From Candidatus Eiseniibacteriota bacterium (GTDB lineage Bacteria > Eisenbacteria > RBG-16-71-46 > JABDJR01): 64,000 nucleotides of DNA. Under the pieces are notes generated by a model. The model saw only the letters and a list, made by a program, of their open reading frames with translations. It was not told where the DNA came from and made no database searches. The stretch's first letter is position 1, and each line of letters begins with the position of its first letter. The position numbers and the translations under genes are program-made. Shown here piece after piece: positions 1 to 64,000 of the stretch. The DNA is taken from assembly GCA_963762255.1 (NCBI GenBank), contig CAVXKA010000001.1:1322121-1386120 (forward strand), read 5' to 3'.

Positions 1-391
1 CAACACCAGCGGCACCGCGGTGTTCCACATCGCCGGCGGCGGCTGCGTGGTCGAGCCTGCGTACGCCGGCAACCTCTACATTTGCGAAATCAAGGCTGAC
101 GACGTCATCCTCGCGCAGCGGGAAGTGAACTCTCCCGATGTGGTGAACGGCGACGGAGATCTTCCCACCGACGGCACCCCGCCGCTCGGCCCGGTCTGCG
201 ACGGCGGTCTGATGTCGGTCAGCCTGGCTGACGCCGTGTTCCACGCGCCGTTCTTCAAGACCGGCGCCTATAGCAAGTGCTCCGACCTGACCGCCCCCTA
301 CGGCGGCACGATCGAGCTCGGGGACGCGACCGTCGGCACCGCGTACATCAAGGCTGGGACCAGCGCGAGCTGCTTCGCCGGCTGTCCGTGA
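1..391 (+). CDS. hypothetical Cys-rich protein, C-terminal fragment (5' end outside window)
   Basis: ORF is open from base 2 to TGA at 389-391 with coding-like composition. No family is recognisable from this fragment. Confidence 0.35.
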   Translation, partial: NTSGTAVFHIAGGGCVVEPAYAGNLYICEIKADDVILAQREVNSPDVVNGDGDLPTDGTPPLGPVCDGGLMSVSLADAVFHAPFFKTGAYSKCSDLTAPYGGTIELGDATVGTAYIKAGTSASCFAGCP

Positions 392-588
392 CGTTCTCCC
401 AGGATTCCCGGACAGATTACAAGTAGAGCACGGTCGTTCTCCGGCGCCCGAATGGGGTGCGTTGGCAGAGGCCGGTCCTTCACCGGGGGGAAGGAACGTC
501 GCGGAGGCCCGGGATCGGGTATCCTGGGGTCGCCCCCTGCCAACGGCGATCACCGTGGATCCCGGCACCGAGTTCACCTCTATCAAGG

Positions 589-2583
589 ATGCAGATGATG
601 ACTCGGAGTCTATTCGCCAGATGGCGACGACAACACCGCATGAGCATCCGCGTGGCACTTTGGGTCATCGGATCTGCGCTGCTCCTCGGAGGGCTACCAA
701 CTGCGGCGCGGGCCCAGGAGGATGCGTGGCCGGCGGTGAATCCTGCCGATCTCGCGCGCACCGAGGGCGAGATCGAGCCCGGTGCGCAGGCCGAGATCCT
801 CCAGAAGATGGTTCGGATCGACCACCGCACCAGTACGATCGCCATATGGTCGTACCGCTCGTTCTTCATCCGCGTCAAGGTCTACACCCGCGCGGGCGTC
901 GAGGCGTTTGAGTCGATCGAACTGCCGTTCAGCGACGACGTGAAAGTCGAGGCAGTGCAGGCGCGTGTCGTGCACCCCGATCTGACAGCGGTGGACGTCG
1001 CCGCGGACGCGATCTTCGACCGAGAGGTAGTGAGGAAGGGTAGCAGGACCGCGAGTCTCAAGGTCGTAGTGGTCCCGGCGCTTCAACCGGGCGACATCGT
1101 CGACTACCGTTGGCGGGAAATCGACTCGCTGCCGAACGGGGTCTTTGAAATTCTCCCCTTCTATGCCGGGCATCCCATCCGTGATCTCCGATACGAGGTG
1201 AAGGGGATGGCATTTCAGGGGGCGCCCCCCCTCTGGTGGGAGGCGGTGAACATGGAGTCTCCGCCGCGGGAGGTGATCACGGGGGGGGTGACCGTGTTTC
1301 GGGGCTCCCGCCTTGCCGCCGTCCTGGACGAGCCCCTCATGCCTCCGGCGACTTCCCTCGCTCCTTGGCTGTTTGTTTACTATGCAGATCAGCCGGGTCT
1401 GGGAATGGCGAAGCGGTGGGATGACCACGCCCGAGAGCTTTACGACAACTTCGACCGGAAGCTGAATGGCGAGCAATTGGAGGAGACGGCCCGCGAGGTA
1501 GCGGCGGGAGCCACCGATTCGCGGGAGGTTCTGGCCCGACTTCACGCATACTGCCGCCGGCGGATTCGGAATCTGGACGAGGAGTCGGGGAACTCGGACC
1601 CGCCCCTCGGCTGGAAGCTGCGAAAGCCGGCGGAGATCCTGAAAAGCGGCAAAGGGACGAGGCAGGAAATCCGGTTCGTGTTCGCGGAACTGGCCCGTTC
1701 ACTAGGCTTTGAGCCTCATCTGGCCGCGTTGTCGAGCCGGAAGCGGTACCTGCTGGGGCGGGATTTCGGTTGGCCCGGGCTCTTGGAGGGCTTCGCGGTG
1801 GCGGTGTCCCTCCCCGACGGGTGGGTGTTCACCGATCCGGGAAACCCGCTGTTGCCGCCCCTGACTCTCCCTTGGTGGAACGAAGGGGCCGCGGCTCTCG
1901 TGGCCGGATCCGAAGGGGGGAGATTCTTGGAGCCGTCTCAGCGGACGGCGGCCGAGAACCGCGGGGTGAGCCGGTTGGACGTGGAGCTCAAGCCGGACGG
2001 GAGCCTCGCCGGGGTGCTCGTGACGGAGCTTCACGGGCAGATGTCCTTGACCTGGATGCTCGACCATGGCCCCGACCGCGAGAGCGTCGAGAGTGCATTC
2101 GGCGCGCGGATCGAGAAGCTGTCTCCCGGCGTCGTAGTCCGGTCCCTGAGGTGTGAGCCATGGCCCACGGACACGCTCCGGGTTCGCGCGTCCCTGGAAT
2201 GGCCCGCCGGCGCCCGGACGGTTGGGAACACCGTTCTTCTCACGCCATTGCTCGTCAACCAGGATCGCGAAGAACTCTTCCCCGCGGCGGAGCGCAGGTA
2301 TCCGATCGTGTTTCCCTACGCCGTTGACTCGGTTGACAGCGTTTTCATTCGTCTGCCGGACGGGTACGCTCCGGTATCGCCGGATACGACAGAGGCGTTT
2401 GGCTTGGGCCCGGTGGGATCCTACTCGACGCGGATCGTCACGAACGAGGCCGGTTTGCTCGCGGTTCGGGAGTTCACCTTGCGGTCGACGCGATTCGAGA
2501 CTGCCGGGTATCCGGCACTTCGTGACTTCCTCGGGAGGATTCGTGACTTGGACGGCATGCAGGTCGTTCTCCGGCGTCCGTAG
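589..2583 (+). CDS. secreted DUF3857/transglutaminase-like family protein; the catalytic Cys position carries Thr, so predicted inactive paralog
   Basis: Signal-peptide-like N-terminus (MQMMTRSLFARWRRQHRMSIRVALWVIGSALLLGGLPTAARA); an alternative ATG lies at 640. The architecture parallels the downstream paralog, but the motif GKGTRQEIRFVFAELARSLG stands where the paralog has GDCKDKSNLMRALLSSLG. Confidence 0.55.
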   Translation: MQMMTRSLFARWRRQHRMSIRVALWVIGSALLLGGLPTAARAQEDAWPAVNPADLARTEGEIEPGAQAEILQKMVRIDHRTSTIAIWSYRSFFIRVKVYTRAGVEAFESIELPFSDDVKVEAVQARVVHPDLTAVDVAADAIFDREVVRKGSRTASLKVVVVPALQPGDIVDYRWREIDSLPNGVFEILPFYAGHPIRDLRYEVKGMAFQGAPPLWWEAVNMESPPREVITGGVTVFRGSRLAAVLDEPLMPPATSLAPWLFVYYADQPGLGMAKRWDDHARELYDNFDRKLNGEQLEETAREVAAGATDSREVLARLHAYCRRRIRNLDEESGNSDPPLGWKLRKPAEILKSGKGTRQEIRFVFAELARSLGFEPHLAALSSRKRYLLGRDFGWPGLLEGFAVAVSLPDGWVFTDPGNPLLPPLTLPWWNEGAAALVAGSEGGRFLEPSQRTAAENRGVSRLDVELKPDGSLAGVLVTELHGQMSLTWMLDHGPDRESVESAFGARIEKLSPGVVVRSLRCEPWPTDTLRVRASLEWPAGARTVGNTVLLTPLLVNQDREELFPAAERRYPIVFPYAVDSVDSVFIRLPDGYAPVSPDTTEAFGLGPVGSYSTRIVTNEAGLLAVREFTLRSTRFETAGYPALRDFLGRIRDLDGMQVVLRRP

Positions 2584-2587
2584 CGGG

Positions 2588-4485
2588 CTGGGGCCGGCCG
2601 TCGCTCTTCTACTCTTGCTTCCGAGTCCCTTGGCAGCGGCTCCCAGATGGGTGCGCGAGGCGATTTCCATGCCGAGCACCTCCCCCGACTCCGCTGCGGC
2701 GCGGGTCCGGTGGGACTCTCGCGAGCTGGAGTTCCGGGGTGGTGGGCTGTGGCGGGAGTGGCACCGTCGAGTGGTGGAGATCCGGGATCCGGAAACCGCT
2801 CCGGCCGCGGCCAGGGCGATTGTGTCCTACCGCACCGACTCGATGCATCTGCGCGAATTCCGCGCTTGGCTCGTCGGTCCGGACGGACGCGAGACACCGA
2901 TCGGGAACGACGAAGCTATTGAAGTCGCCATCCTGGACGAGACGATATTCAACGAGGGGCGGCGCCGTGTTCTGACGCCCACTGGCGCGGTCCAACCCGG
3001 CTCCTTCTTCGCGTGGGAATCCCGGGTGGAGGAGCGGACTCCGTTCCAGGAGTACGGCGTTGTGGTCAGCGCGGAGTATCCGGTCGAGGAGTGCACGGTC
3101 TCGCTCCGAACTCGAAGGGATGACGTAGTCAGGTACTGGACGCGGGGCGTTGCGCCGGATAGATCGAGCGACGGATCGGGAGAGCATCGGTGGAGCTATA
3201 GACGCTTGCGGGGCGATTCGACCGCGGGGAAGGACGCTGCCCCGGTTACCGAGTTGATGGTGAAAGTGGTGCCCCCCGAGACCGGCCCGGTCCCGGTGCT
3301 GAGTTCCTGGGTGGATGTGGCGCGGTGGCTTGCCGAGATCGCCGAGTCGTCCCCGGTGGATACTGCCGTGATCGCGGGAGCGGCCCGAGAAGCGGTGCGG
3401 GATGCCGTGTCTCTCGACGATTCGCTCCGAGCGCTGGCCGACCTGACGCAGTCCGTGCGCTACGTCTCGATTGCGATGGGAATAGGGAGTGGAGGAGGAT
3501 ACCGGCCCAGGCCAGCCGCGCGAGTGCTTACCACGCGTTACGGCGACTGCAAGGACAAGTCCAACCTCATGCGGGCGCTGCTCTCGAGCCTCGGGATCGA
3601 ATCGCACCTCATGGTACTGAACGCTGAAGCGTCGTGGCCGGTCCCCCTGGAGTGGCCGTCCCCTCTCCACTTCAATCACTGCATTCTCGCCATCTGCGCG
3701 AACGGATTCTCTTATTCCAACGCCGTCGCTACTCACCCCCGCCTGGGACGGTTGTTGCTGTTCGACCCCACCGACGAGTTTCTGGCCCTGGGGTACCTAC
3801 CGGCGGTCGATCAGGGAAGCTGGGGGCTTCTCGTGGGCCCGGACTCCGAGCCGCTCGTTTGGACACCGGTCATCTCCGCGGATGGTGTCCTCGTGGACCG
3901 GCTCGTCCGGATGAACGTGGGCGCCGAAGGAGCGATCCGCGGTCGCCTGATCGAGACCGTGACCGGTATCGTGGAAGCGCGGTACCGTGCGGCGAGCCGT
4001 TCGGACCCCGCAACGCTCAACCGGAACGTGGCGGAAGCTCTGGCGAAGGCGGAGCCGGTTTCCGTCGTCCTCGATGGACGGGGGGAACGCGAATCGAGGC
4101 CGATCTCGCCGCCAGCGGTGGGATCGAGCACCTGCCCGGAGGGCTGCTGCTCGTCACGCCGGCTCGGTTCTTCTCAACCCTCCCCGACCCCGCAGGGATG
4201 GACCAGCGGGCCGCGACCCAGGGAGGGGAGTGGAGGGAACGCCTGGTGCTTCGGTCGGGCCCGGGACTCGCCGTGGATGCAATCCCCGACCCGGTCACCA
4301 TGGAGGGTTCGACCGGGAAATTTGAGCAGATAGCTATTGCAGGAGGAGATTCCGTGGTCGTCGAGCGTATATTCCGCGTGGAAACGGTGGCCGGGCCGAA
4401 TCGCCCGGACCCGGAGGAATTGGTGCGGCTTGGTGAGGCGATCCATGAGGCCGCCCGAGCAGGCATTCTGCTTCGCAGGAACTGA
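2588..4485 (+). CDS. secreted DUF3857 + transglutaminase-like (Cys-protease fold) protein; frameshifted in a G6 run at 4080-4085; start uncertain
   Basis: Hydrophobic leader GLGPAVALLLLLPSPLAAA, then the transglutaminase-core motif YGDCKDKSNLMRALLSSLGIESHLMVLNA. The C-terminal 130 aa (GGTRIEADLAASGGIEHLPGGLLLVTPARFF...) are read in a different frame after the G-run. No ATG/GTG/TTG precedes the leader in this frame; CTG 2588 is the only candidate. ATG 2557 sits one base out of frame. Confidence 0.55.
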
Positions 4486-4558
4486 GTCGGCTCGCATTGG
4501 CACAGTGAACCTGTGCTGGAGTTGGCCCTTCTGGGTCCACCTCCCCAACGCCGCTCCA

Positions 4559-4650
4559 GCAAACTCTTTGCTATCAATAGGTTTAAGGCGCGCTTCCCCG
4601 GGGTGGAGTCCTGCGACTCTCACGGGTCACAAGTGTGCCTACTCGAAACA
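4559..4650 (+). repeat. copy A of a conserved ~90-nt intergenic element (core ATCAATAGGTTT...GGAGTCCTGCGACTC...CACGG)
   Basis: Copies at 4559, 6111 and 7111 align at roughly 80% nucleotide identity in the same orientation. Copy A lies in the convergent gap between 4485 and 4655. Confidence 0.7.
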
Positions 4651-4654
4651 CCCG

Positions 4655-5932
4655 TCATTCGCTTGCCGACCGCACCGAGGTGGCGCGTCCTACCGAGCCA
4701 TAGATGCACTTGTCTCCGGTCGCAGGATAGCCGAAGCGTATGTCAGGCCGGAAAGGCTCCGGGAAGCAGGGGTGACCTTCGATGCTCCAGCCGGAATAGA
4801 ACAGCACGAGTTCGCTGTCCTCCACGACGACGGTCGGTGCCATCATGCCCCACTTGTCAAAACTCGCCTCCGGACTCAGGAGGACATCCGGGCCCGACCA
4901 ATCGACGCCATTGGCCGACCAGAACAAGTTGATCTTCTCGTTCTGGTGGAATTCCCCGCCCTCCTTCTCCAGCGTGGTGGAGAAGACATGGTACGCGCCA
5001 TCGAAGTACTTGACTTCCGTGATGTTGGCATCGGGAAGGATGTAGCCGCCTGACTTCGCTACGACCTGGAGATCCGGGCGGAACACCGCCTTGGCCATTC
5101 CGACCGATTGAATCGACTGTCCGGGTGCATCCGCGCTCTGATCGGGAAGTGCGAAGGCGACGCCGACGTAGAACAACTCCAACAGTCCGTCTCTGATGAC
5201 CACGCTCGGTTCCTGCGTGTTGTTGTCGAAAGATGTCACAGTGAGGTTGTACGAGATCAAAGGCTCCGCCCGCCCCGTGAAGACAGCCCCGTCCGTCAGC
5301 AGCCGCTCACGGATCGACTTGCCCTTCAGGTCCAGCGTGGCGACACCAATCTGATACCGATGTGGAAGAGGCTGGCCCTGGTACTCGCCCCATGCTGAGT
5401 AGAAGAGATACAGCGTGTCGCCAAGGACCGCGACGTGTGCGGTCTCAACGTCTCCCCGATTCCATGGCTCAGAACCCCGCAGCAGTACAGGGCTGCCTCG
5501 GAACTCCCAGTTGTATCCGCCGTCGGACGAGAAGGCGTAGCCGATGCCGGCAGGCGCATCGATGATGTTGCAGGCGGCTAGATTCCCGGCGTCCCAGGAG
5601 TAGTAGTAATTCCCATTGGCCTTGCAGAAATACGTGGTGTAGAAGAGGTGGTAGCCTTCCGCGTCCTTCACCACGGCCGGGTCAGCGGGGAAGATGGGCC
5701 ACCCTGCCGTGCCTGAACTCACGACGGGCCGATCGGCGGGGTCCCTCCCGAATGTGAAATGCGGTCCCTGCGGATTCCCGTCCGGAGGTCCAATCTTCTT
5801 GTCCCGAGCGCATGCCGGTGCGCAGGGGACCAGGAGCACCAGAGCGACCAGGGCCAGGAGCCTCCGCACGATCACCGAGGGCTTCCTCGGGTGGCGGCAA
5901 GGCAGGGGGCGATCGACCTTCCGACCAGTCAT
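4655..5932 (-). CDS. secreted glycoside-hydrolase-like five-bladed beta-propeller protein (GH43/GH32-clan-like; family uncertain)
   Basis: 425-aa ORF with N-terminal signal peptide (MTGRKVDRPLPCRHPRKPSVIVRRLLALVALVLLVPCAPACA). Repeated aromatic/Asp-rich blade-like segments are typical of beta-propeller glycosidases. Start chosen at the internal Met preceding the hydrophobic segment. Confidence 0.45.
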   Translation of the reverse strand: MTGRKVDRPLPCRHPRKPSVIVRRLLALVALVLLVPCAPACARDKKIGPPDGNPQGPHFTFGRDPADRPVVSSGTAGWPIFPADPAVVKDAEGYHLFYTTYFCKANGNYYYSWDAGNLAACNIIDAPAGIGYAFSSDGGYNWEFRGSPVLLRGSEPWNRGDVETAHVAVLGDTLYLFYSAWGEYQGQPLPHRYQIGVATLDLKGKSIRERLLTDGAVFTGRAEPLISYNLTVTSFDNNTQEPSVVIRDGLLELFYVGVAFALPDQSADAPGQSIQSVGMAKAVFRPDLQVVAKSGGYILPDANITEVKYFDGAYHVFSTTLEKEGGEFHQNEKINLFWSANGVDWSGPDVLLSPEASFDKWGMMAPTVVVEDSELVLFYSGWSIEGHPCFPEPFRPDIRFGYPATGDKCIYGSVGRATSVRSASE

Positions 5933-6110
5933 TGTCCAGACCTCCGCGGTTTCGAGAGGTGCCACAAGCCGCCGAAGAGCTCAAGGTGTTCGCTCCGGGG
6001 CTCGTTGATTTGACCCCTTGGGAGGACTCCAGGTTGCGCGTCAGTCCATGGGTAGGTGGAGCTGATCCCAGACGCTCGGCTCGCCGGCCCAACCCTGAAC
6101 GATTGCCCCC

Positions 6111-6203
6111 GCTAACCTTTTGCCATCAATAGGTTTGAGGCGTGTTTCCCCGGCCTCGAGTCCTGCGCTTCCCACGGGTGACAATGGTGCCAACTCGAAA
6201 ACG
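6111..6203 (+). repeat. copy B of the conserved ~90-nt intergenic element
   Basis: Aligns with copies A and C. Lies in the divergent gap between the GH-like gene start (5932, minus strand) and the secreted-protein gene (6421, plus strand). Confidence 0.7.
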
Positions 6204-6420
6204 CGGCCTCTCCGCTTCGGATCTCTCAACTGTAGGACGAAGCCGCCAAGCGTGGCGCTGCATCATCGTTTGGGGAGGCAGTCCAGATTGGGTCTCATCG
6301 AGGGACCCAGCGGCGGCACTCTCCAACCACCCGGCGGCGACTTCAAAGCAATTGCAGATCGGGTGAATCGTCCACTAGCCTTGTGCCACCGCGTGCCGCC
6401 AACTACACAGGGAGGGGTGG

Positions 6421-7059
6421 GTGATGGAATCGCATGCATCCGTGGTTGTCTTCCTTCTGGTGGTCGTCCTCTGTATGGTCGGCATCTCGGGCGCATCGGC
6501 CGCCGTGTTCACGATCCCCCCGGTCGCCGACGCCACCATTCAGCAACATGCTGGAGTGGACACGCTCGTTCAGACCGACGATGTCTTTCTCCAGGCATTG
6601 GGAGTCGGGTCGTTCGACTGGCGAGCAGCCCTGGAGTTCCCGCTGGACGCGATCCCGACGGGTAGCACGATCACGTCGGCCGGGCTCAGGCTTCGCGTGG
6701 CGATGAGCATGGGGGACCCGGGAAACATCGCGAACTTTGAGCTGCACGGCTACCCGGGGGACGGCCTCATCACGGTGGGCGATGCCCAGAACGACACTCA
6801 CTTCCTGCACGCCTTCTCGGATACCATAGTCTCCTTCACGGATCGCACCATTGATGTGACCACATTCATCCAGGAGCGCATCACATCCGGAGGGTCCTAC
6901 GTCGGATTCCTGGTCAAGACGGTTCCCGGCAGCATGGGAGGGGACGGCTTCGCCAGCATGGAGCATGAGAACGCGGACTGGCGCCCATACCTTCAGGTGG
7001 TGACCACCGCCGTGGCGGTCGACAAGTCGACTTGGGGGCGGCTCAAGACGCTCTATTAG
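6421..7059 (+). CDS. hypothetical secreted protein
   Basis: Signal peptide MMESHASVVVFLLVVVLCMVGISGASAA. RBS AGGGAGGGG at 6409-6417. No recognisable catalytic motif. Flanked by element copies B and C. Confidence 0.6.
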   Translation: MMESHASVVVFLLVVVLCMVGISGASAAVFTIPPVADATIQQHAGVDTLVQTDDVFLQALGVGSFDWRAALEFPLDAIPTGSTITSAGLRLRVAMSMGDPGNIANFELHGYPGDGLITVGDAQNDTHFLHAFSDTIVSFTDRTIDVTTFIQERITSGGSYVGFLVKTVPGSMGGDGFASMEHENADWRPYLQVVTTAVAVDKSTWGRLKTLY

Positions 7060-7110
7060 CCGTTGAGCGGGGTCCCGGATTCCCACGGGGGCTGGCCCGG
7101 AGGTGGGTCC

Positions 7111-7197
7111 GCAAGCCTTCTGCTATCAATGATTTTGGGGCGCGTCCCAATGGGGTGGAGTCCTGCGACTCCCACGGTCAACCTTCGTGCCCCTTTC
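7111..7197 (+). repeat. copy C of the conserved ~90-nt intergenic element
   Basis: Aligns with copies A and B (GGGGTGGAGTCCTGCGACTCCCACGG identical to A apart from one base). Lies between the 7059 stop and the 7320 ABC ATPase start. Confidence 0.7.
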
Positions 7198-7319
7198 GGC
7201 GCTGGCCGCCCATCGCAACCTGATCTCGCGCTCTGCACTCCAAGACACTGGGGCCGCCGCAACCCTTCGGCCCTTCGTGGCGTAAGCTCCAGGGTCCCAC
7301 CACCTCAGGAGGAGGCCGC

Positions 7320-8252
7320 ATGCTGATCATCCGTGACCTCGTGAAGGTCTACCCCGGTCCCGTCGTCGCCCTTCAGGATGTGAACCTCGAGATCCCGCCG
7401 GGCATGTTCGGGCTGCTCGGACCGAACGGCGCCGGCAAGACCACGCTCATGCGCATCCTCGCCGGGCTCCTTGAGCCCACTTCCGGCGACGTGACCCTCG
7501 ACGGCGAGAACATCCTCACCAAGCCTGAACGACTGTGGGCGCGACTCGGCTACCTCCCGCAGGATTTCGGCTTCTACCCGCATCTCTCCGGCGAAGCCAT
7601 GCTGACCTACCTGCTCGATCTCAAGGGCGTAGAAGCGCCGGGTGGGACGAAGGCGCTCGCGAAGCGGCTCCTCGAGCGCGTGAACCTCGCCTTCGCGGCC
7701 AAGCGCAAGGTGAAGTCGTACTCGGGCGGCATGCGACAGCGGCTCGGCATCGCCCAGGCCATCGCCGGCGACCCGCGCCTCATCATCGTCGACGAGCCGA
7801 CCGCGGGCCTCGACCCCGAAGAGCGCCATCGCTTCTATCGGATCCTGGCCGAGCTGGCCGAGCATCGCACCGTGCTTCTCTCCACCCACATCGTCGAGGA
7901 CGTGGCCGTCCTCTGCCCCCGATTCGCGGTGATCCGACAGGGGCGCTTGATCGCGCGCACGTCGCCCACCGAGGCGCGGGCCGCTATCGATGGGAAGATC
8001 TTCGAGGGGCGCATAGATCCTTCCGACATGGATCGCGTGAGCCGCGAGCACACCGTGACCCAGGCGGTGCTGGTCGAGGGGAAGAACCGTGTGCGTATCC
8101 ACTCCGCGAGCGGCGCGGCGCCCGCCGGTTTCGAGCCGGTGACGGCCACGCTCGAGGACGCCTACCTCGTGCTCATGCGCACCGAGGCCGCCGAGCAGTC
8201 CCGCCTCGACGCGGCGGCCTCCCGCCCGGTGGGCGCCGGTATCGCGCGATGA
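7320..8252 (+). CDS. ABC transporter ATP-binding protein (ABC-2/NosF-like)
   Basis: Walker A GPNGAGKT, signature YSGGMRQRLGIA, Walker B LIIVDEPTAGLD. ATGA overlap with the downstream permease gene. Confidence 0.9.
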   Translation: MLIIRDLVKVYPGPVVALQDVNLEIPPGMFGLLGPNGAGKTTLMRILAGLLEPTSGDVTLDGENILTKPERLWARLGYLPQDFGFYPHLSGEAMLTYLLDLKGVEAPGGTKALAKRLLERVNLAFAAKRKVKSYSGGMRQRLGIAQAIAGDPRLIIVDEPTAGLDPEERHRFYRILAELAEHRTVLLSTHIVEDVAVLCPRFAVIRQGRLIARTSPTEARAAIDGKIFEGRIDPSDMDRVSREHTVTQAVLVEGKNRVRIHSASGAAPAGFEPVTATLEDAYLVLMRTEAAEQSRLDAAASRPVGAGIAR

Positions 8253-11200
8253 GCGCCGCTCCGGACGCGACCCTGAGCACCCTTCCGCCCCGCGCCAACG
8301 CCGGGTTCCGGCGCTTCCGTCTCGTCTTTCTCCAGGACTTCCGCCAATCCTGGCGCCGGCCGATGTTCTGGATTCTGATCGTGGTCCTCGCCCTGACCTC
8401 GTACGGTCTCTCGACCGGCCACATGCGGATCGCCTCCGGCGAATCGCAGGTGGGCGGCACCAAGGCATGGATCACCTCCCAGTTCGCGGTGACCCAGATG
8501 TTCGCCCTGGTGGTCTTCCTCTTCTACAGTTTCTTCGTCGCCATCGCGGCCGGGATGGCGGTGATTCAGGACGACGAGTTCAAAGTCGGGGAGATCCTGA
8601 ACGCCACGCCGCTGCGGCCCCGGGAGTATGTCTGGGGTCGGTTCCTCGGCATCTTCGCCGCATTCCTCGCCGTCCTCGGGCTGCACACGCTCTTCGCGAT
8701 CTTCTTCGGCCATGTCTTCCCGCACGCGGGTAAGGAGGAGATCTTCGGGCCGTTCGCGTTCGGGAACTACGCCATGCCCGCGCTCCTGATGGGTGTGCCC
8801 ACCATCGTGCTCATGGCCGGCACCGCGTTCGCGATGGGAACGTGGACCCGCAAGCCGATCCTTGTCTTCGTGTTTCCCGTGGCCATGCTGCTCGTGTGCG
8901 GTTTTTTCATCTGGAACTGGTCGCCGAGCTGGCTCGATCCCAAGTGGAACAAGCTCCTCATGCTCCTGGACCCGGCCGGGTTCCGGTGGCTGAACGAGAC
9001 CTGGCTCAAGGTGGACCGCGGCGTCGACTTCTATAACTCCGCGCGCGTTCCCCACGACGGCCTGTTCTGGCTGAACCGCGCGCTCGCGATGGGCATGGGC
9101 CTTCTCGCCGTCGTCTTCGCCGAGCGCCGGTTCGCGGCGTCCCTCCGAGGCGCCGACGCAGGCACGCGCGCGGCTCGCCGGGTCCGAGCCGCGCTCGCCG
9201 GCGCCGGCGAGCGCCAGGGCTCGGGTGACGCCGCGGCGGCGCTGGCGACCTACGCCGCCTCGGGGAGCGCCTCACTCGCCGAGCTCGAAATGCGAAGCGG
9301 TCGCCCGAGCTTCTTCGGCGGCACGATCGAGGTGCTGCGCGTCGAGCTGCGCGAGCTGCGGAGTTCCGCCGGGCTCTATCTCTTCGTGCCGATCATTCTC
9401 CTTCAGGTGATCGGGACCGCGGCCTTCGCGGTGGGCGCCTTCGACACGCCGCTGCTCAACACGGCCGGCGGCATCGCGACGGGGGCCATGAACACCCTCA
9501 CGCTTCTCGTCTGCCTGCTGCTTCTCTTCTACACCGTCGAGTCGCTGGAGCGTGAGAAGAACACGGGCTTCGGGGCGATGTTCTACACCACGCCCGTTCG
9601 GACCGCGTCGATTCTTCTCGGCAAGGCCCTGGCCAACAGCTTCGTGGGGATCGTGGTTCTCCTCGCTGCATTCCTCGGCTCGGCCATCGTCATCCTCTCC
9701 CAGGGGAAGATGCCGGTCGATCCGCTGCCCTTCATCCTGGTGTGGGGTCTCCTTCTGGTACCCACCTTCATCGCCTGGACCGGGTTCACCTCGGCGCTAT
9801 GGGCGCTGAGCGGGAACCGCTTCACGACCTATGGAATCGCGCTGGGCGCGCTCATGCTCACCGGCTATCTCCAGATGGCCGGGAAGATGTCGTGGGTGGG
9901 TAACTGGGATGTCTGGTCCGTGGTGAGATGGAGCGATCTCGGTGTGTTCGAGTTGGACCGCAAGGCGCTTCTCCTGAATCGCCTCATGGTGTTGGGGCTG
10001 GCCGCCTTCTTCATCACCCTCACCGCCCGGGTGTTTGCGCGGCGCAGCTTCGACGTGGTTCGCCTCATGGACCGTCTGCGCGTGGGCGCGCTCATGCGCG
10101 GCAGTCTGGCGCTCATCCCTTCGCTCGTGGTGGTGCTCGCCTGCGGCGCCTTCCTGAAAGTGGCGGTCGACCAGGGTTTCGAGGGAGAGTCGGCCAAGAA
10201 ACTGATGAAGGACTATTGGCGCAAGAACCTCACCACCTGGAAGGATGCGCCGCTGCCCTCCATCGCCGGCGCCGACGTGGATCTCACGCTGGAGCCTCGC
10301 GACCGCGCCTTTCGCACGAGCGGCTCCTACCTGCTCGTCAACCGTCTTGACCATTCCCTGCGGCAGATCCCTCTCACCATCGGGCTCGACTGGAAGGACC
10401 AGGAGTGGATGCTGAACGGGGAGGGGGTCAAGCCCGAGGATCGTTCTCACCTCCTCGTGTTCACACCGACGCGGCCGCTCGCCCCCGGCGACTCGCTGCG
10501 CATCGGGTTCAAGTTCCACGGCGTCTTCCCCAAGGGAACGACCAAGAACGGCGGAGGCATCGAGGAGTTCGTCCTCCCCTCCGGCGTCGTGCTCACCAGC
10601 TTTCGTCCCACGTTTGTGCCGCTGCTGGGATTCCAGGAGGGGATCGGGATCGACGAGAAGAACCAGTACGACGCGAAGGAGTACGCCGACGACTTCTATG
10701 TGGGAGTAACCAAGAGCGGTTTCGGCGTGGACCGGCCCTATCCGACGCGCATCCGCATCACCGGCCCCGCCGAGTACACGCTCAACTCCGTGGGAACTTG
10801 CGTCAGCGACAGCGTCGCCGACGGCCGGCGCACCGTGGTGTGGGAGAGCGACCAGCCGGTCGGTTTCTTCAACGTGGTGGCGGGCCGCTGGGAGACGTGG
10901 CGCGGCGACGGAACCGCGATTTTCTACAACCGCAAGCACAAGGTGAACGTGGAGGAGATGGGGGAGGCCCTCGACGCGTCGAGGAAGTACTACTCGGAGT
11001 GGTTCCTCCCCTTCCCGTGGCGCGAACTCAAGCTGAGCGAGTTCCCCGCCCTCGCCAACTACGCGCAGGGGTTCCCAACCAACATCACGTTCTCGGAGGG
11101 GATCGGTTTTCTCACCAAGAGCGAACCCAAGACCAACCTCGCGTTCATGGTGACCGCTCACGAGGCGGCCCATCAGTGGTGGGGGAACATTCTCTCTCCG

Positions 11201-11941
11201 GGAGAAGGCCCGGGCGGCAACATCCTCTCCGAGGGAATGGCCCACTTCTCGACCATGCTCCTCATCGGCCAAGTGAAAGGGGAATACCAGCGGCGCGAGT
11301 TCGCCAAGCGCATCGAGTCGCGCTATGGCGACAACCGGCAAGCCGACTCCGAGCGCCCCCTGGTCAAGACCGACGGCTCGCGCGCCGGAGACACCACGGT
11401 GATGTACGACAAGGGAGGGTGGACCTTCTGGATGCTGCTCAACCACATGGGACGCGATAACGCGCTCGCCGGGTGTAAGGAGTTCATCGAGACCTACCGC
11501 GACAACCCCGACCATCCCGTGCTGCAGGATTTCGTCGCGGTCCTGCGCCCGCACGCGCCCGACTCGACCGCCTACGACGCCTTCGTGCAGCAATGGTTCT
11601 TCGACAAGGTGGTGCCGGAGTACCGCGTGAAGGACGCGAAGCGGACGGCGCTGACCGACGGTGCCACCGACAGCACAGGCACCTGGGAGGTTACCGCGAC
11701 TGTCGAGAACAAGGGGACGGGCCGGATGCCGGTCGTGGTGGCGGCGACGGTGGGCGACGCGTACGACAAGGAAGGCAAGCCGAAGGACGGCTATCGCGCG
11801 GAGCGGCAGACGATCGTGCTGGGAGCGGGAGAGAGCGCGGAGCTCAAGTTCCAGTGCGGGTTCAAGCCGGAGCGCGTGGTCGTGGATCCCGACGTGCTCG
11901 TGCTGCAGCTCGAGCGCGAGCGGGCGACGGCGGGGCTCTAA
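8249..11941 (+). CDS. ABC-2 family permease fused to an M1-family (aminopeptidase N-like) zinc metallopeptidase domain
   Basis: N-terminal roughly 600 aa carry multiple hydrophobic TM segments typical of ABC-2 permeases. The C-terminal half carries HEAAHQWWGN (HEXXH) followed by ...SEGMAHF (downstream Glu ligand), the M1 gluzincin signature. Start ATG 8249 overlaps the ATPase stop. The longer 7535 ORF is a spurious N-terminal extension. Confidence 0.8.
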   Translation: MSAAPDATLSTLPPRANAGFRRFRLVFLQDFRQSWRRPMFWILIVVLALTSYGLSTGHMRIASGESQVGGTKAWITSQFAVTQMFALVVFLFYSFFVAIAAGMAVIQDDEFKVGEILNATPLRPREYVWGRFLGIFAAFLAVLGLHTLFAIFFGHVFPHAGKEEIFGPFAFGNYAMPALLMGVPTIVLMAGTAFAMGTWTRKPILVFVFPVAMLLVCGFFIWNWSPSWLDPKWNKLLMLLDPAGFRWLNETWLKVDRGVDFYNSARVPHDGLFWLNRALAMGMGLLAVVFAERRFAASLRGADAGTRAARRVRAALAGAGERQGSGDAAAALATYAASGSASLAELEMRSGRPSFFGGTIEVLRVELRELRSSAGLYLFVPIILLQVIGTAAFAVGAFDTPLLNTAGGIATGAMNTLTLLVCLLLLFYTVESLEREKNTGFGAMFYTTPVRTASILLGKALANSFVGIVVLLAAFLGSAIVILSQGKMPVDPLPFILVWGLLLVPTFIAWTGFTSALWALSGNRFTTYGIALGALMLTGYLQMAGKMSWVGNWDVWSVVRWSDLGVFELDRKALLLNRLMVLGLAAFFITLTARVFARRSFDVVRLMDRLRVGALMRGSLALIPSLVVVLACGAFLKVAVDQGFEGESAKKLMKDYWRKNLTTWKDAPLPSIAGADVDLTLEPRDRAFRTSGSYLLVNRLDHSLRQIPLTIGLDWKDQEWMLNGEGVKPEDRSHLLVFTPTRPLAPGDSLRIGFKFHGVFPKGTTKNGGGIEEFVLPSGVVLTSFRPTFVPLLGFQEGIGIDEKNQYDAKEYADDFYVGVTKSGFGVDRPYPTRIRITGPAEYTLNSVGTCVSDSVADGRRTVVWESDQPVGFFNVVAGRWETWRGDGTAIFYNRKHKVNVEEMGEALDASRKYYSEWFLPFPWRELKLSEFPALANYAQGFPTNITFSEGIGFLTKSEPKTNLAFMVTAHEAAHQWWGNILSPGEGPGGNILSEGMAHFSTMLLIGQVKGEYQRREFAKRIESRYGDNRQADSERPLVKTDGSRAGDTTVMYDKGGWTFWMLLNHMGRDNALAGCKEFIETYRDNPDHPVLQDFVAVLRPHAPDSTAYDAFVQQWFFDKVVPEYRVKDAKRTALTDGATDSTGTWEVTATVENKGTGRMPVVVAATVGDAYDKEGKPKDGYRAERQTIVLGAGESAELKFQCGFKPERVVVDPDVLVLQLERERATAGL

Positions 11942-11981
11942 CCCCCCCCGCAATTCCTTAGATCATGAAGACTTACGGTTC

Positions 11982-12016
11982 TTGCATTTCGACGCTCATT
12001 GCGTCACTATTGACGA
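11982..12016 (+). promoter_or_regulatory. AT-rich putative sigma70 promoter (TTGCAT-N17-CACTAT) overlapping inverted repeat CGTCAcTATTGACG; likely autoregulatory operator of the TA module
   Basis: Local GC drop. Palindrome at 12003-12016 and a second TGCGTCA half-site directly upstream of the HTH-NTase start codon. Confidence 0.4.
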
Positions 12017-12019
12017 GTT

Positions 12020-12649
12020 ATGCGTCAAACAAGAAGCCGTCTTCTCGCGCCCATGCAGGAGAGAATCCTGGCCCTGATGCTTCTCCGACCGGAGCGCCAG
12101 TGGTATCGGAGTGAGCTGGCGCGGGTGCTCGGTGTTCCAACGTCAAGTCTCCAGCGCCCGCTCGGGTCCCTCTGCGAATCACAGGTGCTTACCGCCCGCA
12201 GGGACGGAAACCGCCTCTACTATCAAGCCAACGCGCGGAGCCCTCTCTTTCCGGAGCTTCGAGGGCTGCTGGTCAAGACGTCCGGTCTCGTCGGAGTCCT
12301 GAGGGACGAGCTCGAACCCCTCGCGCCAAAGGTCACGGTAGCCCTAGTCTATGGTTCGATCGCTTCTGGGGAAGAGACCTCCGACAGCGACGTGGACCTT
12401 CTTGTCGTGGGGGCCGTCGGTCTCAGGGATCTCGCGGCGCCGCTTCGCGGTGCCGCCGTGCGTTTGGGACGCGAGGTGAATCCCATCGTCTATTCGGAGG
12501 CTGAGTTCGCAGCAAAGTCCAGAGCCGGAAACGACTTCTTAGTGGCTGTCTTGGATAAGCCCAGGCTCTTTGTCGTGGGGACAGAGGATGACGTTCGCAG
12601 AGCTTCTCAAGCAAAGGCGCGTGGCCCTGGAGCCGGTCGGGCCGGATGA
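12020..12649 (+). CDS. wHTH + minimal nucleotidyltransferase (MNT/AbiEii-like) protein, antitoxin-type partner of the HEPN protein
   Basis: N-terminal winged-helix-like segment (ILALMLLRPERQWYRSELARVLGVPTSSLQRPL) and NTase motif VYGSIASGEETSDSDVDLLVV (GS...DxD). Alternative start ATG 12053. Overlaps the downstream HEPN gene. Confidence 0.7.
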   Translation: MRQTRSRLLAPMQERILALMLLRPERQWYRSELARVLGVPTSSLQRPLGSLCESQVLTARRDGNRLYYQANARSPLFPELRGLLVKTSGLVGVLRDELEPLAPKVTVALVYGSIASGEETSDSDVDLLVVGAVGLRDLAAPLRGAAVRLGREVNPIVYSEAEFAAKSRAGNDFLVAVLDKPRLFVVGTEDDVRRASQAKARGPGAGRAG

Positions 12650-13031
12650 AATAGTCCTGCTTCGGGCGCTCGCCAATCGCTACATTGCTGATGCCGCGAT
12701 CGAGGAGATGTCCCCCGAAGGTCGCTTCCAGCAGGCCTATGGGGCTGCGCGGACCCTCGCCACCATGGTCGTTCGAGCTTCCGGATACCGGGTCAAGCAG
12801 CCCGGAGCCCACTTCAGTACCTTCTTGGCCTTGGAAGCCGCTGATCCAGGGATCTTCCTCGACTACGCCACGTACTTCGACACATGCCGTGCTCTGCGGA
12901 ATGAACTTACCTACGAAGGCCCGGCGGGGATCTCCGAAACAGAGCTGGAGGAGGTCCTAAGAGTCGTCCCCGAATTCAGGCAGGCGATCGAGGCGTGGAT
13001 TGCCCTGAATCATCCCGAGTTCGCACCATAG
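12588..13031 (+). CDS. HEPN-domain protein (toxin-type partner of MNT)
   Basis: About 147 aa, alpha-helical, with the R-x4-6-H-like region ...TCRALRNELTYEG. Sits immediately downstream of and overlapping the NTase gene. An alternative TTG start lies at 12570. Confidence 0.6.
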   Translation: MTFAELLKQRRVALEPVGPDEIVLLRALANRYIADAAIEEMSPEGRFQQAYGAARTLATMVVRASGYRVKQPGAHFSTFLALEAADPGIFLDYATYFDTCRALRNELTYEGPAGISETELEEVLRVVPEFRQAIEAWIALNHPEFAP

Positions 13032-13097
13032 GCCCGGTGGTCCCCCGGGAGCCCCGCTGGTAGACTGTGCCCGCGCCTCCGGCAGAGGGAAGAACCC

Positions 13098-14996
<1,899 letters not shown>

Positions 14997-15153: not shown

Positions 15154-18100
15154 ATGTCTCGACGTATTCTGCCCATCCCACTGCTGATCCGCGTGGTCGG
15201 CTTGGCTCTGGCCCTCGCGGTGTCTCCCGCGATCGCGCTCGGCGAAGTCCCCCAGCCGAGTTCGATCTGTCCGTCGAGCATCTCGGTCCCGATCTCACTG
15301 GAACTTGCGGCACCCGAGGCGTCGATCGCACCCGGCGCGGCGGTCACCCTCACCGGGACCTTGCTCCCCGGTACGGAGCTGGCATCCGCCGAGCTCGCGA
15401 TCTCGTCCGAGGGATCCGTCGAGCTGCTGGGGCCGACCGTTCTCACCTCGGGTCCTTTGGCGAACGGCCAGGCTTGGGTCTTCGAGATCCCCGTCCGCTA
15501 CACCGCAAGCGGTCGCTCCGCGGTATTCGTTCGCGCGCTGGCCGATGACGGCACCGGCGGGGATCGGTTCGAGAAGAACGAAGGGATCTACACGATCTTC
15601 CACAACAACCGGCCGGTCGTCGCGATGGGCGACTACTTGCGCGCCGAACAGCGGGCGATCGAGCAGGATCTCAACTCGGGAGCGCTCACCGAGACGGAAG
15701 CTCGCGCCCAGATGCGGGAGAAATCCAGACCGGAACGCTTGCTGAACTTCAAGCTTCCTCCGATGCAGGGCGCCCCGCCTCCTCCCCCCAGCGGCACGCA
15801 GGTCATCGCACCGGCAGCCCTGGATGGAGGTGAGATCGCTCTCCAGGCGAGCCCCGCGTCGCCGACAGGCAATATCACGGTGCAAGGCACGGTGACCTGG
15901 CTCGACGAGAACGGGAACCCTCACCCGGCGTTCGGAGTGACGGTTCAGGTGCGGGACGATGAACTCATCGGCTCGGAACTGGTGGCCGCCATGGCAACCG
16001 GCACCGACGGCGCGTACCACTTCGTCGTCGACAACGATGACGGCATCGGCGCGGGCAACCGGGACATCTTCGTTCGGTTCATCTCCGCGAACGCGGCGGT
16101 CTCCATCGAGACCGAGGGCATCCTGCACGCCGCCTACGAGGCCGACACCGGCATCTACGACGAGACGCCGGACGGCACCCTCATCACCGAGAACTTCACC
16201 GCCGCCAACACCGGCACCGGCCCCTCCCTGGGACTCCTGACCGGCGCCACCTACGTCGCCTCCTACACGGCGCACCTCAATAGCGACAGCGTTCCTGGGC
16301 GGCATCCGGTTCGAGTGGCCCGGCGACACCGGCTCCGCGAACTACAACGGAAGCCGCATCAACCTGCGCCCCGGCGATCGCTGGGACTGGGACGTGATGT
16401 TCCACGAGTACGGACACTACGTTCAGGACAGCTTCAACTTCGAGAACGGCGTCGGCGGGCCCCACAACATCGGGGATTGCATCGCCGACGTGCACAACAG
16501 CAAGAGCGAAGGCGTGCGGATGTCGTGGAGCGAGGGTTGGCCGACCTACTTCGGCACCGTCGCTCAGGACTACTTCAACCTCTCCTCGCTCAACGTCCCG
16601 CGCGTAGGCGACGTGAACTACGGGGACACCGGCGAGAGCAACTTCAGCTACAGCCTCGATGCCCAGGACAACAACGGACGGGGCGAGGACAACGAGCTCA
16701 CCGTCCAGCGCATCCTGTGGGACTACTACGACACGAACTCGGACGGTCGCGACAACGTGACCACCTCCGAGACCACCCTGTTCAACATCCTGCGGGGCAC
16801 GAACACCGAGACCCTCTCCGGAGGGATCGGGCTGATCCGCGCCACGCTGTCCAGCCAGCAGGACCTGGCCTACGGCGCGATCACCACCGATCACCTGGTG
16901 GGGCCCTCGTTGAACTCGCCCGCGGCAGGGGCGATCGTCTCGCCCGCGAGCGCCAACTTCTCGTGGGATGCGCTCGTCGGATGTCCGCTCCTCCTACAGC
17001 GGGGACTCGTTCGATCTCGTGTTCTATAACGCGAGCACGTTCGCGAAGATCCTGACGATCGGGGGCCTCGCCACGACGTCGCGGTCCTTGACGCTGCCCG
17101 AGTTACAGACGCTGGTGGCGTCGAGTCATCAAGTGCTGTGGGCGGTGGAGGGAAGGAACTCTTCCGGTCCGGCCACCGGTCCGTACCTGGGGGAGAGTTT
17201 TGCGATCACGGTGAACCAGCCGCCGGTGGCGGACGCGGGTCCGGACCAGACGGTGGAGTGCACGTCGCACACGACGACGTCGGCGGTGCTGAACGGGACG
17301 GGGTCGAGCGATCCGGACGGGGACGTGTTGACGTACCACTGGACGGGTCCGGTCGGGGTGACGTTCGACAACGCGAACGCGGCGATCACGACGGGGCACT
17401 TTCCGGAGGGTGCGACGGTGGTGACGCTGACGGTCTCCGACGGGATCGAGAGCGACCAGGATCAGATGACGGTGACGGTGGTGGACACGACGCCGCCGGT
17501 GATCGTCTGCCCGGCGGACATCACGGTGGAGTGCACGTCGCACGACGGGACGCCGAAGGGGGACGCGCAGCTGGTGCCGTTCTTCAGCGGGGTGTCTGCG
17601 ACGGATGTGTGCGACAGCGCGCCGGATCTGACGAACGACGCACCGGACTACTTCGCGCTGGGAGCGACGGTGGTGACGTTCACGGCGACGGACGCGGACG
17701 GGAACTCGGCATCGTGTCAGGCGACGGTGACGGTGGAGGACACGACGCCGCCCGTGATCACGGTGGAGCTGAACCGGGACGTGCTGTGGCCGCCGAACCA
17801 CAAGATGTCGGACATCCTGGCGACGGTCGTAGTCACGGACATTTGCGATCCGAGCCCGACGTACGTGCTGACCTCGATCACGAGCGACGAGCCGGACAAC
17901 GGGTTGGGGGACGGAGACACGGACGGGGACATCGTGGCCGACCTGGGGACGCCGGACCAGGTGTTCCAGTTGCGGTCGGAGCGGATGGGTGGTGGGGATG
18001 GTCGCAAGTACACGATCCTCTACACCGCGAGCGACGGATCGGGGAACACGGCGCCGGACACGGCGTGCGTGCGGGTGCCGCACGACAGGTCGGGGATGGC

Positions 18101-63668: not shown

Positions 63669-64000
63669 TTGATCGGCAAGAACGTCTCTCATTATCGCGT
63701 CGTGGACAGGCTTGGCAGCGGGGGGATGGGGGTCGTCTACCGAGCGGAGGATACGGTCCTGGACCGCTCGGTCGCCCTCAAGTTCCTCCCCCAGGAGGCC
63801 ACCCGGGACAAGCCCTCTCTGGATCGGTTCCTCCGCGAAGCCCGCTCGGCTGCGGCACTCAACCATCCGCACATCTGCACCATTCATGAGATCGGGGAGC
63901 ACGAGGGAGAGCCTTTCATCGTGATGGAGTTGATGGAGGGGCAGACGCTGGCGCAGCGCATCGAGGGCAAGCCGCTCAAGATCGATCTCATCTTGGACCT
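63669..64000 (+). CDS. Ser/Thr protein kinase, N-terminal fragment (continues beyond window), paralog of the 42879 kinase
   Basis: TTG start. [40 protein letters not shown] is near-identical in pattern to [40 protein letters not shown] at 42879. Confidence 0.7.

Follow-up and report, generated by a model that had tools for sequence, protein, structure and literature searches.

The BIME-1 (bacterial interspersed mosaic element 1), or RIP (repetitive IHF-binding palindromic), elements of Escherichia coli consist of REP (repetitive extragenic palindromic) sequences flanking an IHF site, and the Correia elements are found in Neisseria; both families comprise tens to hundreds of dispersed copies, and the Correia elements are marked by terminal inverted repeats and by TA duplications. 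Established concepts also include flexible genomic islets of the replacement type and illegitimate recombination facilitated by homology. Here we describe an intergenic element of ~100 nt that is present in three copies (A, B, and C) in a 64-kb stretch of contig CAVXKA010000001.1 (assembly GCA_963762255.1), upstream of a conserved operon encoding an ABC exporter. The whole of this stretch is referred to below as the window. The element is a real, conserved, lineage- and strand-specific noncoding unit at the edges of variable gene content, and it is tentatively read here as part of the upstream region of the operon.

The locus resembles several known systems. With integron attC arrays and CALINs (clusters of attC sites lacking integron integrases) it shares same-orientation repeats of ~60 to 140 nt that fold as imperfect hairpins, single accessory genes of ~1 kb between the repeats that often encode secreted or unknown proteins, and a single chromosomal position whose content varies between strains. 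The ~100-nt intergenic unit, in which an AT-rich, IHF-like box is combined with GC-rich palindromes, recalls the BIME-1/RIP and Correia elements. As in upstream regulatory regions, 5' leader RNAs, and clusters of small RNA (sRNA) paralogs, a sharply bounded noncoding stem-loop block lies upstream of a conserved operon, and apparent purifying selection relative to the neighboring spacer and the presence of local paralogs are further likenesses to upstream regulatory regions and leader RNAs. Finally, differing gene sets between the same conserved flanks and variable junctions beside a conserved anchor are features of flexible genomic islets.

Three direct copies of one element

A repeat search of the window recovered one family with three direct copies on the + strand, at 4553-4648, 6105-6200, and 7105-7200, with start-to-start spacings of 1552 nt (A to B) and 1000 nt (B to C). 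A first-pass annotation, made from the letters alone, had proposed three same-strand direct copies at these places, and their presence was confirmed by the repeat search, by core-motif counts, and by a covariance model. Each of the cores TGCYATCAATRRKTTT and GAGTCCTGCGMYTYYCACGG has exactly three occurrences in the window, where 0.03 and 0.18 would be expected from shuffles. The covariance model, which was built from copies A, B, and C and used to scan the whole window with filters off, gave scores of 113.8 bits for A, 101.6 bits for B, and 99.9 bits for C, and nhmmer agreed with this result. The next best match reached 11 bits; the check for further copies that had been suggested thus found no fourth copy in the window.

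The copies are not equally related. The ~80% nucleotide identity attributed to all three by the first-pass annotation holds for A and B (80% ungapped; 70 of 88 core positions) and fails for the pairs involving C, which share just 64 to 68% overall (C against A, 64% ungapped; core identities of 60/88 for A/C and 59/88 for B/C). The 1,000-bp spacing between B and C is exact, as had been noted, and is treated here as a coincidence; the A-to-B spacing of 1552 offers no counterpart.

Read 5' to 3' on the + strand, the element begins with a short GCAAAC-like motif, which is followed by an AT-rich, near-palindromic box (TTGCTATCAAT-N3-TTT), by a GC-rich, three-tier imperfect hairpin in which GGCGYG/YGTGCC surround GGAGTC-CTGC-GACTCC, and by a tail that in the A/B type is the start of a second small hairpin. 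Copies A and C have an intact central GGAGTC-CTGC-GACTCY hairpin, and that of B is weakened; the first-pass annotation had likewise seen the hairpin in A and C. The box is the best-kept part across the paralogs (24-28/32) and persists in the diverged copies of locus L094, described below. Its ATCAA-N4-TT pattern agrees with 12 of the 13 positions of what we take to be the IHF consensus (WATCAANNNNTTR) in A, C, and the copy of locus L085, that is, in three of the four full copies; the final R of this presumed consensus is T in all copies.

Orthologous copies and constraint in related lineages

The comparison loci were taken from JGI (L085, L086, L087, and L092), from a Logan assembly (L004), and from ENA (L094). 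The four JGI loci each carry one full copy of the element 115 nt before the ABC ATG, and the copy of L085 scored 87.9 bits with the covariance model. The operon of this group is 87% identical to that of the window; the corresponding values are 86% for L094 and 84% for L004. The L004 contig begins inside the element, and 43 of 45 bases are those of copy C. In L094 the place of copy C is taken by a diverged, B-like copy that shares the 3' part of B. The sequence immediately before the ABC promoter in L094 is homologous to copy B and to the adjoining 50-75 nt on its 3' side, and B therefore looks like another lineage's version of the ABC-upstream region. A second copy in L094 is inverted and faces a divergent gene for a 627-aa protein at 113 nt, a distance that mirrors the 110-116 nt between element and ABC gene. 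The tail motif GT[AG]CCNACTCGAA has four occurrences in the 688 kb compared, namely in A, in B, and in both copies of L094. Outside this locus, L085, L087, and L094 (~40 kb of close relatives) contained no additional copies.

The copy next to the operon is far better kept than the DNA adjoining it. In 20-nt bins of the alignment between the window and L085, identity was 0.85, 0.80, 0.95, and 0.90 in the element, 0.65, 0.70, 0.52, and 0.70 in the ~60-nt spacer that follows copy C, and 0.95-1.0 in the promoter-like and 5' untranslated region (5'UTR) block of the operon. The much better conservation of the element than of the adjoining spacer points to constraint, so that copy C appears, on this comparison, to be kept by selection, or at least far better kept than adjacent noncoding DNA. 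The GCAACC-N16-CGTAAG block and the ribosome-binding site GGAGGAGG are conserved in all six lineages compared, with or without the element; the former occurs once in the window and resembles what we take to be promoters of the extracytoplasmic function (ECF) sigma type (AAC / CGT).

Other relatives are free of the element. These are L006, in which the ABC ATPase gene and its upstream region are 90% identical over ~1 kb, L001, in which the first 1.7 kb of the operon are 83% identical, and L005, with an operon identity of 71%. A degenerate full copy in L006 was considered and rejected, the local alignment of the element body being no better than with shuffles; what L006 has in common with L085 is limited to the 3' tail and a remnant of 36 nt. 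Homologs of the 212-aa protein encoded between copies B and C (60% identity) and of the glycoside hydrolase (GH)-like protein encoded between A and B (75% identity) were found elsewhere without flanking elements. The comparison of homologous loci that the first-pass annotation had called for thus turned up both the flanking-gene homologs and the ABC operon without the element in other lineages. In L077 (3488-6627), five small open reading frames (ORFs; 201, 180, 128, 123, and 208 aa) follow one another on the same strand downstream of a tricorn-like protease gene; the last of them encodes the homolog of the 212-aa protein, and no repeat element separates them.

Several contigs end near the ABC upstream region: L088 to L091 begin 43 nt upstream of the ABC ATG, L092 begins 5 nt short of the element, and L004 begins within it. 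These ends are consistent with strain-level heterogeneity or with repeats that break assemblies.

Breakpoints of rearrangement

Between the window and L085, homology starts exactly at the 5' edge of the element (7109 = 9791). The breakpoints between the window and L094 lie at ~6250 and ~7250, both outside the elements. L085 and L006 part at a 14-nt direct repeat, GTTCGTGCCCCTCA, in the 3' end of the element (0 of 300 shuffles); in L085 a 36-nt truncated copy lies upstream and a full copy follows 62 nt later, bounded by this direct repeat. The C terminus of the GH-like protein is conserved with its homologs to within ~7 codons of the stop and is thus native almost to its end, which places the junction at copy A right after the tail. 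Breakpoints therefore occur at four different positions relative to the element, which argues against a single crossover site.

Two further signs of recombination were considered and discarded. An apparent 12-nt direct repeat in L094, taken for a possible target-site duplication, is the second strand of the hairpin of the inverted copy, and no mosaic structure of the ABC operon that would indicate recombination tracts was visible at 300-nt resolution.

Structure, coding potential, and database searches

RNAalifold predicted a small 5' hairpin and the three-tier main hairpin. Across five distinct sequences, 90.5% of cells in the consensus pairing can pair, and two pairs show double changes, with observed covariation values reached by 9-11 of 500 shuffles. 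With B set aside, all changes in P1 and P2 among A, C, L085, and L004 are G-C/G-U or compensatory. The G-U pairs of the stems exist on the + strand only, which is a hint of a + strand transcript. The tail forms a second hairpin that is perfect in the inverted L094 copy. The scan detected no intrinsic terminator at any copy, the tails being ACUCGAAA in A and B and CCCCUUUCGG in C. By inspection and scan, neither a sigma-54 promoter, an FNR box, a Fur box, nor a sigma-70 promoter fits.

The antisense reading frame that had been noted through all three copies is indeed open, and it shows no sign of coding. Two further frames, in sense direction, are open too, copy A has stop codons just upstream, and similarity ends at the element edges; together these features indicate that the element is not a gene. 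A search with the antisense profile against 1.84 billion proteins, which is a weak test, returned only a repetitive, unrelated surface protein.

A composite pattern of box and hairpin had no match in the species-representative genomes (185,579 genomes), in the metagenome contigs of JGI, or in the viral contigs of IMG/VR; the metagenome collection is without the JGI samples that carry the element, so that this negative is weak for close relatives. A pattern for the 3' core was found at 33 and 36 loci in public collections, all of which match just the 20-nt pattern and are therefore taken as chance matches. A plasmid BLAST search with the element gave no match. The proposed comparison with Rfam was run as well, and no known RNA family fits the element: there was no match at the gathering threshold in the window, and at E values up to 10 there were only chance-level matches, none of them on the elements. 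We found no report in the literature on intergenic repeats in Thermoanaerobaculia.

A candidate regulatory module of the ABC operon

The repeats, the conservation of orthologous copies, their restriction to one locus, the heterogeneous breakpoints, and the lack of attC or miniature inverted-repeat transposable element (MITE) hallmarks lead us to infer, tentatively and somewhat short of calling it probable, that the element is a regulatory module, restricted to a lineage and specific to this locus, that belongs natively to the region upstream of the ABC operon. If so, it is a previously undescribed conserved noncoding motif. The module would act locally as a regulatory unit, with the AT-rich box as a candidate protein-binding site for a regulator or an architectural protein and with hairpins that would be recognized in a transcript of the + strand. 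Rather than att sites, A and B would be older or further versions of the upstream module that stayed behind when the hypervariable islet in front of the operon took up accessory genes for secreted proteins. Illegitimate or homology-anchored recombination, with the conserved operon as the anchor, would be the likely route, and each event would insert one more gene with its module between the operon and the module already present. Stacking of this kind would leave same-orientation copies that seem to delimit genes, and no dedicated recombinase would be required.

Module stacking would explain why the copies have a common orientation and are confined to one locus. It would likewise explain the 20-35% divergence between copies, which would be allelic versions and not fresh duplicates, as well as the homology between the flanks of B and L094, the presence of a copy A without a downstream gene, and the lack of a recombinase. 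That the element is not a simple UTR, as the first-pass annotation had argued from its placement, is upheld.

Several observations weigh against the regulatory module. Single-sequence folding is not significantly better than that of shuffled sequences (z of -0.15 to -1.75), and covariation across the five sequences amounts to two pairs. B and the two L094 copies, which retain box and tail, have lost the central hairpin, and it is thus not essential in every copy. A scan for sigma-70-type promoters detected none within the elements or close to them. Downstream of copy A there is no + strand gene for it to face, and orientation toward a gene is uninformative in divergent gaps. L006, L001, and L005 run the operon without the element, which is therefore dispensable for basal expression. 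Since the sequence searched amounts to ~100 kb of the clade, the term locus specific holds for that extent.

Alternative explanations

The close rival of a regulatory module is a small family of trans-acting sRNA genes, of which A, B, and C would be paralogs, each its own transcription unit and independent of the ABC operon; the box region would be the promoter or 5' end, and the hairpins would be the body and the terminator. Such a family would fit the L094 copies, in which the unit has preserved its length and its two ends, box and tail, though its middle has fully diverged, and it would fit the nonconserved spacer between the element and the ABC promoter. The structure is compatible with it, the G-U pairs being specific to the + strand. 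By inspection, GCAAAC and a T-rich hexamer 16-17 nt downstream are loosely like the GCAACC-N16-CGTAAG block of the operon; however, this likeness is without the CGT of the -10 element. Moreover, a U-tract terminator follows neither hairpin, no Rfam family matches, the structure is not significantly stable, and B has lost the main hairpin. We consider the sRNA family unlikely.

The REP- or MITE-like repeat that the first-pass annotation had offered among its explanations would be a nonautonomous mobile or recombinogenic element of the REP/BIME, Correia, or MITE kind with many copies elsewhere and a local cluster at this locus. Its size of ~100 nt, the combination of an imperfect palindrome with an AT-rich box, its confinement to intergenic DNA, and its occurrence in both orientations in L094 are what would be expected of such a repeat, as is its narrow clade, given that neither the 3' core nor the composite pattern was found in the species-representative genomes. 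Several metagenome contigs (L004 and L092) end in or beside the element. Target-site duplications, however, are lacking around A, B, and C: the longest repeats shared between upstream sequence and tail are 6-7 nt, which 204-278 of 300 shuffles matched. Nor are the ends inverted repeats of each other, the 5' end (GCAAAC...) not being complementary to the 3' end (...ACTCGAAA or ...CCCCTTT). All copies seen in four lineages are at one locus, with none in the other 61 kb of the window or in the ~40 kb of relatives, and the orthologous copy is conserved like coding DNA across 13% divergence of the operon. The window contains no transposase and no gene like RAYT (REP-associated tyrosine transposase, of the IS200/IS605 type), no RAYT-like gene was seen in the 10-kb flanks of the related loci, and a protein-profile search of ORFs through the element, again a weak test, found nothing real. 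We consider a mobile repeat an unlikely explanation of the locus.

The reading of the copies as cassette boundaries or recombination sites fares worse. In that reading, A, B, and C would be att-like sites of an undescribed integron-like array whose recombinase is encoded elsewhere, with the GH-like gene and the gene of the 212-aa protein as the cassettes. The same-orientation repeats are 1.0-1.6 kb apart with one accessory gene between each pair, and the array lies at a hypervariable spot whose right edge is an element. In L085, the truncated and the full copy are bounded by the 14-nt direct repeat, and L006 resembles an excised form; the succession of stem, internal loop, and stem loosely recalls folded attC sites. 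On the other hand, a regular-expression search of 4400-7400 found no RYYYAAC/GTTRRRY pair on either strand. There is one R'' and one R' site per strand in this interval, ~1 kb apart and never paired, and copy C contains no GTT. The conserved part is the center of the hairpin rather than its ends: by consensus folding, the most conserved stretch is the central hairpin GGAGTCCTGCGACTC, the 5' third lies outside the main helix, and internal segments pair. No tyrosine or serine recombinase is encoded in the 64 kb of the window or in the 10 kb upstream in L085 and L094; integrase, transposase, and resolvase domains are absent from the main ORFs of the window, and recombinase domains from the Pfam lists of L085 and L094. 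Both breakpoints between the window and L094 are external to the elements, and B is found in L094 with its own tail and flank, an arrangement that is not what excision within the element would produce. Where the two putative cassette genes have homologs elsewhere, the element does not flank them. The cumulative GC skew climbs from one end of the window to the other without lasting reversal at 4.5-7.2 kb and thus shows no switch of the kind expected at dif, and neither tRNA nor tmRNA genes were detected in the window by ARAGORN. If true, the cassette reading would be far more important, yet it is disfavored by the evidence of the breakpoints and is, in our judgment, very unlikely. This locus is not evidence for a new cassette system.

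Even less credible is an undescribed gene-capture system of Thermoanaerobaculia, distant from integrases and with the element as its recombination site, in which segments would be inserted beside the 3' tail, each bringing or regenerating a copy, so as to yield a locus-specific array of accessory secreted-protein genes before the conserved exporter operon, and of which the truncated copy and 14-nt repeat of L085 and the 'empty' L006 would be footprints of insertion and excision.

Gene neighborhood and variable islet

The gene order around the copies is as the first-pass annotation had described it (Table 1). The islet flanks that the window has in common with L085 are the end of a gene for a 243-aa protein (window 1-392 = L085 7302-7693) and the 5' edge of copy C. 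Between them lie 6.7 kb in the window and 2.1 kb of unrelated small ORFs in L085. Still other genes occupy this interval in L094, L006, L001, and L005, so that the region upstream of the ABC operon is different in every lineage examined. By the homologs of its ABC ATPase, the window falls in Acidobacteriota, near Thermoanaerobaculia. The other main ORFs of the window are ordinary chromosomal genes.

Table 1. Features of the element locus in the window and orthologs of copy C
Feature	Position	Strand	Remarks
Variable islet	392..7108		Two ORFs like DUF3857/transglutaminase (TGase), copy A, GH-like gene, copy B, gene for 212-aa protein
Copy A	4553..4652	+	Between stop of second DUF3857/TGase-like ORF (4485) and stop of minus-strand GH-like gene (4655)
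Copy A, box	4568-4584		TTGCTATCAATAGGTTT
Copy A, hairpin	4605-4620		GGAGTC-CTGC-GACTCT
Copy A, tail	4635-4647		GTGCCTACTCGAA
GH32/GH43-like beta-propeller lipoprotein gene	4655..5875	-	Between A and B; likely start GTG at 5875
Copy B	6105..6204	+	In divergent gap between GH-like gene (start ~5875, -) and gene for 212-aa protein (start 6421)
Copy B, box	6120-6136		Intact
Copy B, central hairpin			Degenerate
Copy B, tail	6187-6199		GTGCCAACTCGAA
Copy B, 3' flank	6200..6250	+	ACTCGAAAACGCGGCCTCTCCGCTTCGG...GGACGAAGCC; second small hairpin possible; homologous to sequence preceding ABC promoter in L094
Gene for 212-aa secreted protein	6421..7059	+	Between B and C; signal peptide; weak CBM96-like match
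Copy C	7105..7203	+	46 nt past stop of gene for 212-aa protein; ~115-120 nt ahead of ABC ATPase ATG
Copy C, hairpin	7157-7172		GGAGTC-CTGC-GACTCC; perfect; enclosed by GGGGCGCG/CGTGCCCC
Copy C, orthologs	L085:9787-9885; L004:1-52		
Promoter-like and 5'UTR block of ABC operon	7255..7319	+	GCAACC-N16-CGTAAG, then GGAGGAGG before ATG
ABC-2 ATPase gene	7320-8252	+	
ABC-2 permease/peptidase M1 fusion gene	~8249-11941	+	

The second DUF3857/transglutaminase-like gene seems to be split into two frames that overlap (ORF 2153-4333 and ORF 3634-4485). In the first of them, the tail is rich in Arg, Pro, and Gly and looks out of frame, and the second ends in a plausible C terminus; the split of this gene (2153-4485) may be due to a frameshift or an assembly error. 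In L094, the genes for the permease/M1 peptidase (10930-14626) and for an alpha-amylase-family protein (15285-16653) are each present as two overlapping or adjacent ORFs, and both are single genes in the window and L085, which suggests frameshifts or assembly errors in the L094 contig.

A 1.1-kb segment of the window between the ABC permease gene and the alpha-amylase-family (CBM48) gene (11944-13035) contains an ORF with a nucleotidyltransferase domain (12020-12649; NTP_transf_2/Polbeta). The segment is absent in L004, and L085 and L087 carry an unrelated minus-strand gene for a 283-aa protein there. Because this segment differs between lineages, it is a second variable spot, directly downstream of the ABC operon. 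A few kilobases upstream of the operon, L001 has three tandem small ORFs (1175-1895; 53, 52, and 57 aa), two of which have a weak match to a lanthipeptide-leader domain; to judge from these matches, they may encode precursors of ribosomally synthesized and posttranslationally modified peptides. A 119-nt direct repeat with 74% identity was found at 42880-42998 and 63670-63788 of the window. One of its copies lies at the 5' end of a gene for a Ser/Thr protein kinase (42879-44378) and the other at that of an ORF truncated by the end of the window (63669-64000). The two genes are probably paralogous kinases.

Comparison with known systems

If the element is indeed a module of the operon, it adds a candidate regulatory module, of RNA or of DNA, from an uncultured and almost unstudied class of Acidobacteria, with ties both to an unusual ABC exporter that is fused to an M1 peptidase and to the genes for secreted proteins nearby. 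Repeated insertion beside a conserved operon could then leave stacked modules that mimic cassette boundaries. This is a caution for scans that seek integron-like arrays, as such boundaries can be imitated without cassette machinery.

In contrast to attC sites, the element is without R''/R' core sites, and its conserved sequence is central and not terminal. Unlike integrons and CALINs, the locus has no integrase that we could find, its rearrangement breakpoints are not at one position, and relatives retain one copy, as a single ortholog, in front of an operon of the housekeeping type. The BIME and Correia families are dispersed, whereas all known copies of the element are at one locus, and neither target-site duplications nor terminal inverted repeats were seen around them. 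As for leader RNAs and sRNA clusters, no described RNA family matches, and no promoter or terminator can be assigned to the element. In contrast to what is found with leader RNAs, the operon keeps its own promoter-like block downstream and is free of the element in related lineages. With respect to flexible genomic islets, which to our knowledge normally retain no stacked copies of the upstream module of their anchor, the apparent stacking of upstream modules would be the unusual feature of this locus.

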